64,000 bases of DNA from Eledone cirrhosa (taxonomy: Eukaryota): positions 96,162,001 to 96,226,000 of the forward strand of contig OZ024741.1 of NCBI GenBank assembly GCA_964016885.1, given 5' to 3'. Shown piece by piece: positions 7,263 through 28,706 of this stretch. The notes beneath the pieces were generated by a model. The model did no database searches and had not been told where the DNA came from. It was given only the letters and a program-made list of their open reading frames with translations. The translations under genes were made by a program, and so were the position numbers. How positions within the stretch are numbered: position 1 is the stretch's first letter; every line of letters starts with the position of its first letter.

Positions 7263-7800
7263 AGTAGTGGGAGAGTGAAGAATAACATGGTCGGCTGTAC
7301 AAAAAGGGTTTCATTTACAGTATTAACAATTGTTTCATTGATCAGGTGAGTCTAAAGGCCGCTAATCACTCAAAGTTGCGTCACTCGACCTTAAATACAG
7401 TGTGTGTCTCTGATCAAATCATCAGAATACTGGATGGTGTAACACATGGCATTGGTATTTATAGATACATCGGAGAATCAAGTGAATGAAAACAATAACA
7501 TCAATAATAAAAGATAATAATAAAGAAGTTAGAATGACGTAACTTGGAGTGATTAGCGGCCTTTAGACTCACCGGATTAATGAAACAATTGTTAATACTG
7601 TAAACAAAAACCCTTTTTGTACACCCGACCATGTTATTCTTCACTACTTTTACTCCAAGAATAACCTGCATGGGAATTCACGCAAACTCGCTACCTAACT
7701 AAGGAAACCTCTTGACGAGTCAAACAACGCCGTACGTTAAAACTATCCATAATACAGAGTACTCACAACCTCTAACTGGATTACCTAAAACGATAACTTG
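7263..7800. mobile_element. ORF-less pLTR-like insertion with a ~125-bp inverted repeat
   Basis: Arms ~7268-7392 and ~7525-7650; the right arm carries the 3' half of the hammerhead and gagtactc (7757); flanked by (TA)n. Confidence 0.7.
7318..7432 (-). ncRNA. Type I hammerhead ribozyme with a large stem II insertion
   Basis: Minus: CAGTATT CTGATGA t ttgatcag-(~65 nt)-ctgatcaa t GAA ACAATTGT T AATACTG. Confidence 0.85.
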
Positions 7801-7826
7801 TTATATATATATATATATATATATAT

Positions 7827-8002
7827 ATAGGAACAAGTAAGACCCCGACGGCTGAGCTCAAGCCGTTTCGACGGCTAATTCTGTACGGCTTGAGCTCAGC
7901 CGTCGGGGTCTTACTTGTTCCTATTACCCACTCTACTACCCTAAGTATTGAGTACTTTGGTGCGTTATGGTCCACCTGGTTCCTTACCACATTTCCTTCG
8001 TT
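7827..8002 (+). mobile_element. pLTR fragment of the 41.6/43.5/45.5-kb PLE family with a 40-bp palindrome
   Basis: Arms 7827-7866 and 7885-7924; matches 45533-45650; (TA)n on both sides. Confidence 0.8.
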
Positions 8003-10649
8003 ATATATATATATATATATATATATATATATATATATACACACCCCTCTTTTATACTCTTTGCGTATGTCCCTCACTCTCCTTCTCTCGCCAGCTTCTC
8101 TTCCACCCATTCCTTTTCTTCCAACCCTTAGATTCGGTAGTTTGCTAACCTATTTTTGTTAAGCTCTGCTATCTATGTTCCTTTGACTAAAGTCTAATTT
8201 TCCCATCTTTCCAACATTAAGCTGCTGCACATTTTACAATGTATTTTGTCTTAATTCAGCCCCAAATCTCTAGTAATATTTTTATGTATTTAACTCTGCA
8301 GAAAAACATTTTTCTGATTATATTTATATATATATATATATATATACACTCACTTAGACACACACACACAAACACACACAAACACACACACACACGCACA
8401 CACACACACACACACACACACACACACACACACACACACACACACACACACACGCGCGCGCGCGCGCGCGCGCACGCGCGCACGCGCACACACACACGTA
8501 CATATATATATATATGCACCAGTACACCATGATAGTATTAGAAGGAACAATAATATAGATTGTTTTCAAACTTTTATAAGTTCTCAATTTCCTCTTTCCT
8601 AACTGAATTTAACGGGTAATGAGAAGGATGTTTTCTGTTTTCATTTTAATTGTATTTATTTTTATTTGTCGCTACATTTGTGTAGTGCAACAAACATTAT
8701 TGATATACCTACAAAAAATCTAAAACGTTGATATTTTCACGGCTGTAATTGATATAAGATTTATATGAAATCTGCATTGAATCCGAAATCATTTTAAACG
8801 ATTGTTTCAAATTACAGTACTGTGAAAGATATGCTTCACTGAACACGCCAGAATATTATCAAAATATGTCCAAACGTGTCTCCCATACTTGTCAGGAAAG
8901 TAGTAATTTGACTAATATCTTTTTCACTCATATTTAATTCTTTTCGGTTTTATATTGCTCTATGCATTAAATATGAGAGCACTAACTTAACGATTGAGTT
9001 AAATTCAATGTAAAAAAAAGAAATAAATGAGAAAACCTTGCCAACGTGAAATAGACATTTTAATTTTTTTTTTCACTTTAGCCATTGTGTAGTACATTAC
9101 TTCGATTTTCTTACGTTCAATTTCTTTTCTTATTTCTATCTTATTTTGCACATGTCAATCATTGTCAGTTATCTTCTACACAAATATCGAATTCTTCTTG
9201 ATATATTACAAATCTTTTCCCTTTATTTTTGTTGCCTAGCAACTCCAGCAAGATATGGCAAATTTGTTATTACGCGTGCCTGATTTGGCCGTACAAGGAC
9301 CAATCCTCTGAAAAGCCATATCTTCTCTTTCCCTTGATTGTTCTCGATATCGAAATATTTTTAGGGAATAATATCAAATCTTGATATTTCCACACATTTC
9401 TTCATTTAAAAACATTAAAAAATGATTTTAAACATTTTATTTATATATTGAAATAAAATTTGCTTTAATAAATTTTTTTAAGCATGTTATTTCATCCTTA
9501 TAGGATTATTGATTCATGTGGCATTTGTGTATCATGCAGACAGCATTTGCTGCTCACTCCTGTTGTTTCCTTATTTCTATATTGTGATTTATATACTTTT
9601 CGCCGTTATAATTGAATAGGTTAAAAAATTGCGCATTGACAGGAATTTTTTAAATAATGTCTACGATAAAATCTTAAAATATAAAATACATAGTAAGCAA
9701 TATTTGAAATATATTATTCGCATTTAGAAATAGCGAGATATGTTTTTTTAAATTTCCATGGTGACCAAATGTTATGGAATGATATTTCTCCTCATTTCTT
9801 CTCAACCTCCACTCTATCCTCCATACTTACATCATTTTCCCCAAAAGACGCCTATACACACACACAACACACACACGCTCGCACACACGCTCGCACACAC
9901 ACACACACACACACACACACACACACACACACACACACACACACACACACACACACACACACACACACACACACATATATATATATATATATGGGCAGAA
10001 GATTCAGTAGATCCATAGAAAACTGGTGAGGGTACCAAAGTCACCACTCGATGCTGGCGCAGAGTGTATATAGTAAGAACAAAGTGGGGTGTTACATAAA
10101 AACTTTATTGATCAATTCTGGTTACAAATGTTTCACAAACAGCCGGCTGCATGTGATATTTTTTGGAGTCGATGTCTGAAGTTGGTGTTAGAGAAGTGCC
10201 GGCATTTTTATGATGTACATACTGATTCGAGGGCAGGGACAGTCTTTCCTGCGCATACACGTGAGTTGAGTGGAGCTAAGGTTGTGTTTGTGAGACATCT
10301 GGGGTCTGTGGTTTCGAATTTGCGATCAATGAATCCATCCTGAAGATCGCTTCACCTTAAAAACTGTTTTTCTGCTAGAAGAATTTCATCAAATAAATTC
10401 AACCACGACATGAAACCTTCTTCTGGCACTGATAAAATAAAGTACCGCTGATAAAACAAAGTTGACCCCAGCGGGACTTACACTAATAACATATAGAGAT
10501 GCAATTTATTCCATCACCATAATGCTTCTATCAATAACATCTTAATAAGAAATAATGATTTCTAGCTTTCGAAAACTACCATTAAATTGTTTGAATGAAT
10601 GTCACTAGATGACAGTTACATATATTTTTTATCAAGACCATTATAATTG

Positions 10650-26125: not shown

Positions 26126-26160
26126 CACAGACTCATTCTCTTTATATATATATATATGTA

Positions 26161-26355
26161 TTCAATATAGAAATGGTTTCTACAGGACTAGAACTGTTTC
26201 AGTCGAAGGAAATCATCAGGTAAAGGCTTTCCTGATCCTTTCCTTCGAATGAAACAGTTCTAGTCCTGTAGAAGCCATTTTTATATTAAATATTTATACT
26301 CTGCTATGTATTGAGTACCTTATTTAGTGTGGTTACTCCCAATTGAATCCGGGAT
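26161..26355. mobile_element. Palindromic pLTR-like insertion with hammerhead-like cores
   Basis: Arms 26161-26220 and 26231-26290; minus CTGATGA tttccttcgact GAAAC agttcta GTC; another copy at 27412-27505(-). Confidence 0.6.
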
Positions 26356-27523
26356 ACACACACACACACACACACACACACACACACACACACACACACA
26401 CACACACACACACACACACACACACACACACACACACACACACACACACACACACATATATATATATATGAATGTATGTGTACTATATTTGGCAATATAC
26501 CGTATGGTAATTAAAAACATTTATATATATATATACACACACACACTCATCCCCACTCCCCACACACATGATTTCCAATATAATATAGTACTTGTTCTTG
26601 GTGTTGGTCGAGTCAGGATATATAGAAAATGTTTTTCAAATTTTTGTTTAAACTTAAATCTTACCATTTTTTTCCAGACACATCGACTAACAAACATGCT
26701 CATAGAATACTTGTTACACATTCATACACACACATCCTGAGAGGGTCGCACCTACACACACAACCACAAATAAGCATTCACAAATACCTAATACTTATAT
26801 ATGAGTTCATACACACATACTAATGTACAACTACATTATGCGTGTATATGAATTTATAACAAAATCATGTACACACAAAGTACCACACATTCACAAAAGC
26901 ACAGACTGACAAACAATCAAGCACATAAAGATGTTAAGGAAAACGATAAGTGGCTGAGAGTGGAACGGAGAGAGAAAGGGTGTATTGAAGAGAATAACAG
27001 AGAGATAGACTAAAGGAAGACAGAAGGAGAAAAATGAACAGGTTAGAAAAAAATATAAATATTCCATTTATTGATCAAACATTCTGAACTATTACCACTT
27101 CCGGTCCATTAAAACCTTCAGTGTTCCTGCATCTGATTTCTAGAATGTTCCCTGTATACACTAGGGGTGGCTAGGGCTAGATCCCTGCACCAAATTTCGT
27201 TTTGATTGATTGATAAATGACGATGTTGTCTCAAAGAATCAAACTTTCACTCTCATTATACAGTTATATTCGATCGAGAAAAGAAACTACAGGGCTGCGT
27301 ATTGTACACACACACACACACACACACACACACACACACACACACACACACACACACCACACACACACACACACACACACACACACACATATATATATAG
27401 ATATATATAAGTTTATCCCGGGTTCAATCAGGGGGTAAGCACAGTACGGTACTCAATACATAGTAGAGTATAAATATTTAATATACAAATGGCTTCTACA
27501 GGACTATATATATATATATATAT

Positions 27524-28706
27524 ATATATTTTAACTTTAATTATGTCTCATATAAAATAATACAACTGGCTTTCCACAAAATACATATAGTTAGCACCCC
27601 AAACACTTAAATTAGGTTTATACTAACGTATAACCTAATGTTTGTTGAGTGAGATGGTTACCAGTCGGAGTTTAGCTTAAAGCTATCTCTGTTATTGTAT
27701 TAAATATTTTACTCTTGATTTGGCCAGAGACTTTTATTTCCAGGTACCTTATAAACATGACTTTCCGTATTTATTACTGTTATGAGATATTGTTTGTTTT
27801 TTTGGGTATCACTTCTCTGTTTTTAGCCTAAGAAAATATCTATATGCGTGTGTAAATACTTACATGCATACATTTATTTTTTTAAATTAATTGAGTTCTT
27901 AACACGCGGAATTAATAATGGTTTTGAAATAACTAATTAACCCGCGTGTATTAAATATTTTACTCTTAATTTGGCCAGAGATTTACATTCCCAAATGCCT
28001 TTTAAAGCGTAACTTTCCGTATTTATTACAGTTATGAGATGTGGTTTATTATTTAGGTATCACTTTCTCTGTTTTTAGCCTAAGAAAATATCTATATGCG
28101 TGTGTAATTAATACACGCATACATTTATTTAAAAAAAATTAATTGAGTTCTTAACACGCAGGATTGATAATGTTTTTGAAAAAACTAATTAACCCACGTG
28201 TATATTATTTTACTTTTCTCGTGACTCGTGGTTGTCTCCCTTTTCCGCTTCGTGACGCTATGATACTTCCTCAGTCAAACGACTGCTGGAATTTCAAATT
28301 TGGCGGTCATTCGATGCGTGAAGAGACAACTTAGCGGACACGAAAATTAACTGCGGTAAGAAATGTTTTCTTATATCAAAGTTTAATGGGCTTCCACTGA
28401 CGATTTATAAGTGCCCACCTAAATATATTCTTACATGAAAATATGTTAGGCTTCTACATAAACTGGAAACATTCTCCCAACTTGTAGAAAACTTATAATG
28501 AAACAATTGTTTGGAAAGAGAGATATATTTTAATTTTAATTATGTCTCATATAAAATAATACAACTGGCTTTCCACAAAATACATATAGTTAGCACCCCA
28601 AACACTTAAATTAGGTTTATACTAACGTATAACCTAATGTTTGTTGAGTGAGATGGTTACCAGTCGGAGTTTAGCTTAAAGCTATCTCTGTTATTGTATT
28701 AAATAT
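27524..28706 (+). mobile_element. ORF-less hammerhead element with ~180-bp direct terminal repeats (period 999 bp)
   Basis: 27524-27706 repeats at 28523-28706; internal ~250-bp duplication; (TA)n flanks. Confidence 0.8.
28392..28516 (+). ncRNA. Type I hammerhead ribozyme with a two-hairpin branched stem II
   Basis: TTCCA CTGACGA t ttataagt-(~78 nt)-acttataa t GAA ACAATTGT T TGGAA. Confidence 0.85.

Follow-up and report, generated by a model that had tools for sequence, protein, structure and literature searches.

Large covarying stem II domains on hammerhead ribozyme motifs of Penelope-type elements in Eledone cirrhosa

Hammerhead motifs with enlarged stem II

The stretch of DNA analyzed in this study (hereafter called the window) comprises 64,000 nucleotides of the Eledone cirrhosa genome (assembly GCA_964016885.1, contig OZ024741.1; C2:96162001-96226000), which is 3.0 Gb in size and rich in microsatellites. 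A descriptor scan revealed approximately 12 motifs of the hammerhead ribozyme (HHR) type in these 64 kb, and the window also holds several open reading frame (ORF) fragments for Penelope-type proteins with a reverse transcriptase (RT) and an endonuclease (EN). An earlier note on this DNA had reported large stem II enclosures at positions 28392, 7318, and 6721, and extended hairpins near positions 43548 and 54955. We found that all five sites carry type I HHR sequences, with stem II enclosing 78, 64, 86, 33, and 36 nt, respectively. The coordinates, stems, and approximate sizes given for the three large enclosures are right, and the two hairpins were located at 43552-43645 and 54955-55037. The CUGANGA/GAAA/UH core and stems I to III are complete at four of the five sites; the 6721 copy is truncated, and its family is intact. 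We refer to the families represented at 28392, 7318, 6721, 54955, and 43552 as A to E.

The family A motif (28392-28516, forward strand) has stem I at 28392-28396/28512-28516, the core CTGACGA at 28397-28403, GAAA at 28500, a palindromic stem III, and a predicted GUU cleavage site after position 28511. Its 8-bp stem II (TTATAAGT/ACTTATAA; 28405-28412/28491-28498) closes a predicted three-way junction. Two hairpins lie within the 78-nt insert (28413-28490): the first (28418-28450) has a base of CCUA/UAGG, CCUG/CAGG, or CUUG/CAAG depending on the subfamily, and the second (28452-28489) has a 7-bp stem, a conserved internal loop, and a 3-bp apical stem. None of 200 shuffled sequences formed a stem II domain as good as this one (z = -3.96). 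The branching that the earlier note ascribed to the inserts is thus borne out by prediction at this site, whereas the other four are predicted to be unbranched rods with internal loops.

On the reverse strand, the family B motif (7318-7432) comprises a 7-bp stem I, the core CTGATGA (7425-7419), stem II (7417-7410/7345-7338), GAAA at 7336, and a predicted GUU site after position 7325. The 64-nt insert (7346-7409) contains an asymmetric loop with conserved GUA/GAC, a covarying helix, a conserved AGU/YAG internal loop, and a 3-bp apical stem. Folding of this single copy is unexceptional (z = -1.40; 26 of 200 shuffles as good). A SECIS or kink-turn in the family B loop was rejected because the strands are AG/AG rather than GA/GA, and for a loop-E-like reading of GUA/GAC the register would not be canonical. 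The motif lies in a 5'-truncated pseudo-long terminal repeat (pseudo-LTR) of family B (7252-7537, reverse strand), with an inverted partial copy at 7526-7829 (forward strand).

The family C motif (6721-6848, reverse strand) has a 9-bp stem II (6841-6833/6746-6738), an unbranched, AT-rich insert (z = -6.79), and a GUC site after position 6726. The earlier note's hammerhead stands here with regard to stem II and the 86-nt insert, but this copy is truncated within the core: a (GAT)n repeat takes the place of C3 and of the 5' strand of stem I, whereas other family C copies are complete HHRs. Family D (54955-55037, forward strand) has a 6-bp stem II, a pyrimidine-rich internal loop, and a 36-nt extension predicted to form a rod (z = -1.58); an inverted copy occupies 54592-54674 (reverse strand), and another subfamily is represented at 28975-29056 (reverse strand). 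Family E (43552-43645, forward strand) combines a U3-A8 core (TTGAAAA, 43556) with a hairpin stem III and a 33-nt extension whose predicted fold is a rod with internal loops (z = -5.06). An unpaired nucleotide after A9 and a palindromic stem III are both found in families A, B, and D, and stem III of family C is likewise palindromic. In all five families, the first irregularity in stem II occurs 6-10 bp from the core. Since nothing is unusual about the core or these first base pairs, the catalytic junction does not include the insert.

The earlier note expected standard searches to overlook such motifs, and this is what we observed. The published descriptor for minimal HHRs of Penelope-like elements (PLEs) allows 3-7 bp for stem II and 3-10 nt for loop 2, compared to the 33-86 nt enclosed at the five sites. 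Rfam models at the gathering threshold had no matches in 89 kb, no hammerhead match was obtained around 28392 and 7318 at E<=10, and an E-value scan of the window returned only microsatellite-driven microRNA and small nucleolar RNA matches among the 150 of 231 matches listed. The note's premise that stem II is typically very short in described PLE hammerheads is not supported, since two papers give 7-8 bp (PMC4209133) and, for Hydra elements, 3-7 bp (PMC8557442); the short part is loop 2.

To estimate abundance, we used two samples, with reversed or complemented sequences as controls. The window plus 40 further stretches (464 kb) contained 42 descriptor matches, and 80 hand-picked 10-kb stretches, four of which adjoin the window (800 kb), contained 61; the controls gave none in either case. 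Long HHRs, with at least 40 nt between core and GAAA, account for 26 of the 61 matches, and 13 of the 61 have at least 75 nt. An exact pattern for families A and B matched 3,171 times genome-wide, with one match in the control. Scaling the sample to the genome suggests approximately 10^4-10^5 long motifs, which is an order of magnitude only because the scaling exceeds the direct count for A and B about threefold. We grouped the long domains at all loci examined into 16 clusters, of which a few may be split or are doubtful and two are predicted to be branched. Additional long-insert families with spans of 75-117 nt, one of them branched, were seen at L047:-, L078:+1298, L168:+2074, L193:+6768, and L208:+8454. 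A short-span pattern gave 7,231 matches and none in the control, and the first 100 are all of the minimal type found at 44431-44460 (forward strand), whose stem II has just 2 bp and whose stem III is that of families A and B. This minimal type is linked to a Hydra-type EN at loci L102 and L314.

Covariation and conservation of the inserts

For family B, an alignment of 21 representatives (the window copy, 19 of 20 cluster representatives, and one addition, with the inverted partial copy at L304 left out) supports 23 pairs that are 85% paired, and 13 pairs show double changes. For the insert alone, 86.5% of the cells of 13 pairs are paired and 7 pairs have double changes. None of 500 shuffles matched this, with 37 cells compared to 13 in shuffled data, and slid controls gave 27-55%; the number of further pair types does not exceed that of shuffles (16 versus 17). 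Ten family A sequences yielded 31 pairs that are 92% paired, including 9 with double changes, and the divergent pair states belong to an amplified subfamily, A4. In the 6-bp stem of family D, two pairs have double changes, and one of these shows four pair types. Because the inserts covary across copies, the refutation by absent covariation that the earlier note had envisaged fails.

On a tree of 121 family B copies, the shared changes keep pairing 32 times and break it 14 times, compared to 41 and 57 times for changes at the tips (p = 0.002). G-U pairs are also retained, as at pair 58-75 of family B (GU in 16 of 21 representatives), and this fits selection on RNA rather than repair of a DNA palindrome. 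Furthermore, 11 loop positions of family B (GUA/GAC and AGU/AG) are 90-100% conserved over 20 groups, compared to 40-100% at 35 other positions that lie outside the tested pairs, and the AGU/YAG loop recurs in a separate family, J, whose EN is a distant sister of that of family B. When subfamilies A1 and A4 of family A are compared, identity in the insert (72%) is similar to that in the 190 nt downstream (69%), where reverse transcription would start, and exceeds that in the linker (55%). A search for short-loop versions of families A and B returned nine copies, all dissimilar, versus 3,171 long ones. Taken at the level of sequence comparison, these patterns make it very probable that selection acting on the RNA keeps the inserts paired.

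Host elements, noncoding units, and known relatives

The assignment of these motifs to PLEs in the earlier note agrees with our findings. Family B and E HHRs reside in Hydra-type Penelope elements, within the 3' pseudo-LTR. The family E motif begins approximately 550 nt past the end of an ORF for a C-terminal GIY-YIG-type EN (42274-43008, forward strand), which is the remnant of a 5'-truncated Hydra-type element carrying this HHR. Family B HHRs are located 527-865 nt downstream of a same-strand EN in 11 of the 30 nearest loci. A further long-insert family, F, flanks an intact 808-aa ORF at locus L330. This single ORF encodes an RT and, at its C terminus, an EN of the GIY-YIG type, includes a long basic linker, and carries the motifs RWR, DKT, CNCRNKANC (CxCX5C), CRLC (CxxC), and CNH (CxH). 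The Hydra clade is defined by RWK-like, DKT, CxCX5C, CxxC, and CxH motifs (PMC8557442, section 11). Membership in the clade was assigned on these protein motifs, and the ENs of families B, E, and J align to the L330 ORF. Other Hydra-type traits seen here are the HHR in the 3' pseudo-LTR, (TA)n junctions, and partial tandem and inverted copies. An assignment of B, E, F, and J to Naiad was ruled out by the C-terminal EN and the Hydra motifs. ENs first tied to family A (at L154) and found near family C (at L068/L319) belong to an intervening B-type HHR and to a separate insertion, respectively.

The full-length family F element (L330:5249-8186) also has an upstream HHR and a leader of approximately 350 nt with a GT..AG intron candidate. 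At L096:7055-7320, a short U3-A8 HHR is followed by an intron candidate of approximately 58 nt (GTAAGT..TTTAG) in the leader. The 5' arm of stem I is the very point at which many copies begin or turn around (family F loci L167-L190, position 6848 of the window, and L436). The inverted 5'-truncated copies that are typically seen for Penelope elements may be seeded by fold-back of cDNA on stem I.

In a quick IQ-TREE phylogeny of 30 RT+EN rows (6 less than half filled; no bootstrap or AU test), all long-insert families fall within one subclade from the E. cirrhosa genome (SH-aLRT 100), beside families with spans of 20-36, and family F joins B and J at 90. The distribution of long inserts requires two changes on this tree, with L326 labelled long by kinship only, and a single origin is also compatible. 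We dropped the idea of three or more independent origins since this tree, the longer of two quick searches, needs only two changes. Among 77 loci of metagenome relatives, 37 have a same-strand HHR, with spans of 10-25 and none of at least 40, and no HHR was detected in the other 40; a relaxed control gave three matches. This result shows rarity elsewhere rather than exclusivity, because the 12 loci included in the tree form a different subclade.

Families A and D have the organization of non-LTR retrozymes, with noncoding tandem units that each carry one type I HHR. The element containing the 28392 motif (27524-28706, forward strand) consists of a 999-bp unit plus a 184-bp terminal direct repeat (27524-27707 = 28523-28706), has (TA)n on its flanks, and ends 195 nt past the predicted cleavage site. 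Family A units measure 999, 746-747, 734, and 702 bp, and all are noncoding with terminal direct repeats and (TA)n flanks; those of family D are noncoding, tandem, and 521-528 bp long. Subfamily searches for family A returned 1,913, 1,690, and 1,449 first-look candidates, which are three overlapping lists and not copy numbers. A satellite-like array of the 747-bp unit extends over approximately 39 kb between the first and last listed match (C2:312292144-312330928), and a 5'-truncated relative at 55818-56029 (forward strand) of family A holds just the part that follows the HHR.

Insertions sit in (TA)n, and their ends downstream of the HHR fall at a fixed point. In 90 family A copies, the 3' ends are mostly at +195, +192, or +189 from the predicted site, according to subfamily, and the 5' ends are scattered. 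This is the pattern left when target-primed reverse transcription starts internally, as it does for PAc, a lizard element (PMC11167929). Nine of these copies start 2-25 nt past the site of the previous unit, and 12 read through it. The 5' ends are a mere hint of cleavage because other TA-rich points also gather 4-5 ends, and TA microhomology confounds the comparison.

Published HHRs share many features with those described here. Those of Hydra-clade PLEs (Craig et al. 2021, PMC8557442) are likewise type I motifs near the 3' end. In both cases an additional nucleotide flanks stem II on either side, stem III is short and palindromic, the cleavage site often has a U, the targets are (TA)n, and the protein motifs are the same. 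However, in the 26 Hydra rows of File S2, stem II has 3-7 bp and loop 2 has 3-10 nt (8 in an octopus element), whereas the loops here comprise 33-96 nt and include covarying helices. Metazoan PLE min-HHRs (Cervera and de la Pena 2014, PMC4209133) resemble ours in the pseudo-LTR setting, a helix II of 6-9 bp, the unpaired base after A9, and a palindromic helix III predicted to need dimers. Their helix II is called "larger than usual" at 7-8 bp and their activity low. They differ in that the descriptor caps helix II at 7 bp and its loop at 10 nt, and stem II of families A and B starts with U-A rather than G10.1-C11.1. Non-LTR retrozymes (Cervera and de la Pena 2020, PMC7229834; Li et al. 2026, 10.64898/2026.07.22.740005), described in the latter as Penelope derivatives of 51-972 bp, share with families A and D the AT-rich noncoding tandem units with one type I HHR, both dispersed and in arrays. 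In contrast, the units here are 521-999 bp and have a large insert in place of loop-loop contacts.

Two other systems come closer in loop size. Selaginella PLE-X1 HHRs (PMC8557442, File S2) have loops 2 of 35 and 29 nt, but these are two deviating single cases that are shorter and from another clade, with no covariation reported in the passages compared. The discontinuous Clec2 hammerhead (PMC6765202) is a natural HHR with a long interruption. Unlike the present motifs, it is located in a host-gene 3' UTR and is interrupted by several hundred nucleotides, for which the portions compared mention no conserved structure. We found no structured loop II domains of 60-100 nt in Penelope HHRs in the literature, although subscription papers, figures, and Repbase annotations may hold cases.

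The window includes further HHRs at 49972-50045 (span 45), 30771-30829 (span 25), and 1531-1591 (span 26), all on the reverse strand, and at 60471-60535 (span 30) on the forward strand. A nearly intact 1033-aa RT frame (14737-17838, reverse strand, with 17775-18380 upstream) matches Pfam RVT_1 and has a C-terminal Cys motif and a restriction-like tail. This protein does not come from a Penelope element and is unrelated; presumably it belongs to an R4/Dong-type non-LTR element. There is also a frameshifted non-LTR element encoding an APE endonuclease, an RT, and a C2H2 zinc finger (19678-23357, forward strand), a Tc1/mariner transposase fragment (46032-46763, forward strand), and a run of 200 N bases (62302-62501).

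Possible roles of the stem II domain

The explanation that we favor, at slightly less than even odds, is that these HHRs belong to Hydra-type Penelope retrotransposons and to noncoding tandem units derived from them, that loop II has grown into a selected RNA domain of approximately 35-100 nt on stem II, and that this domain likely binds the RT-EN of the element. In families C and F, the AT-rich apex of the domain is variable in length and probably serves as filler. Because stem III is palindromic, two motifs would fold together as a dimer. The RT-EN protein would bind the element RNA at the conserved internal loops and might help a weak ribozyme to fold. A comparable case is PAc, whose HHR cleaves only with the element's protein (PMC11167929). 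Noncoding units could borrow the enzyme through the insert. In family A, reverse transcription would start approximately 190 nt 3' of the cleavage site, and copying of cleaved, uncleaved, or circular RNA could give rise to truncated, 1.2-unit, and tandem insertions.

Several observations weigh against this explanation. The shuffles used for pair counts ignore relatedness, the representatives were chosen by hand, and the structures were fitted by eye. The comparison of shared changes with those at tips is not significant for the family B insert alone (20 kept and 10 broken versus 33 and 41; p = 0.052) or for 80 family A copies (5 and 4 versus 13 and 20; p = 0.46). High conservation (85-100%) is also seen at several other positions of family B that are unpaired. 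A coding partner was found for none of 132 family A HHRs, and the 30 A4 loci examined have none upstream on the same strand except for a short fragment in L455; likewise, none was found for family C or at any of 30 family D loci. Inserts and topologies are unrelated between families. Finally, sister families in the same subclade have spans of just 20-36 nt and evidently work with these, so no insert can be generally required.

The last two of these points would also be expected if loop II had merely expanded stepwise by RT slippage or fold-back and had been tolerated, with selection keeping it paired only to prevent misfolding of the core. We consider this fairly unlikely but take it seriously. 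Spans within the one subclade are graded (20, 26-36, 45-57, and 75-116 nt), engineered hammerheads are generally known to accept large loop II domains, and families C and F have AT-rich apices of variable length. Mere tolerance does not account well for the near-invariant unpaired loops of family B and their recurrence in the distant family J, for the conservation of the family A insert above linker DNA, or for the lack of an amplified short-loop subfamily among the nine matches for A and B.

An improbable alternative is that the insert aids folding independently of protein, either because its first internal loop replaces loop 2 in the contact between stems I and II or because it steers the choice between monomer and dimer. 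The position of the first stem II irregularity, 6-10 bp from the core in all five families, is consistent with this, cofolding predicts dimeric HHR stems for family B, and natural HHRs commonly have pseudoknots and loop contacts that join stems I and II (PMC3088659). However, no conserved pseudoknot or Watson-Crick complement between the insert and the stem I flanks was found across subfamilies, by a method that is blind to non-canonical contacts.

It is more doubtful still that the fold is kept while catalysis is largely dispensable, in which case the HHR and its insert would be an RNA recognition structure with little or no cleavage. Several core features would suit such a structure. Among the first 100 of 797 matches to the 7318 subfamily, 65 have a CCGA (U4C) core, 30 have CTGA, and 5 have CCAA, and U4C cores occur in amplified family B subfamilies (L045, L110). 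Sixteen of the 30 CTGA matches have another N7, and 15 fall in a CTGAGGA subfamily; the CTGA core of the window copy may be a CpG reversion. Most family A and B copies have a GUU site, 12 of 90 family A insertions read through the site, and insertion of PAc needs no cleavage (PMC11167929). On the other hand, cores are mostly intact, the core and stem III are near-invariant outside these exceptions, family E shows C3-G8 to U3-A8 covariation, A4 has GUC, and the nine family A 5' ends just past the site hint at cleavage. A natural U4C viroid HHR is weak in vitro and sufficient in vivo (PMC3088659), and U occupies the cleavage site in 10 of the 26 published Hydra rows (PMC8557442, File S2).

Least probable is a splicing switch, in which the inserts would be, or would harbor, short spliceosomal introns, and splicing these out would yield a compact canonical HHR. 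Penelope elements carry introns overlapping the HHR (PMC4209133). GT..AG ends (28411-28488) and a pyrimidine tract are present in the family A insert, B has conserved GTA..TAG, F has GTATGT/GTAAGT..TAG, and C has GTGAGT. On the other hand, the GT of family A is lost in A3 and A4, splice signals would be covered by covarying helices, the GT/AG points are not the ends of any of the nine short-loop copies (although introns are normally retained in Penelope copies), and the B and F candidates are just 45-57 nt. Contigs from four runs of unrecorded kind span the inserts, and no joint at candidate introns is among the joints listed, incompletely for family B; this speaks neither for nor against splicing.

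The binding of the RT-EN by a selected stem II domain has a bolder extension. Engineered aptazymes are synthetic constructs that combine an intact hammerhead core with a ligand-binding domain on stem II or loop II. It is conceivable, although we regard it as unlikely, that a Penelope lineage evolved natural aptazymes, in which the stem II domain binds the RT-EN and switches self-cleavage or circle formation, noncoding units hijack the enzyme, and long-loop HHRs explain some "half-core" motifs of elements in which hammerheads were reported to be missing. Eight Naiad families, two of them from cephalopods, are annotated with an "HHR_half_core" that has GAAA 35-50 nt away (PMC8557442, File S1), and these motifs might be long-loop HHRs.

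Because censuses based on the descriptor or on Rfam can miss many motifs (26 of 61 in our sample), reports of elements without an HHR should be revisited with long loops allowed. Separable, covarying stem II domains offer a direct handle on the role of HHRs in Penelope elements. Should cleavage turn out to be under the control of this domain, engineered aptazymes would have a counterpart in nature.

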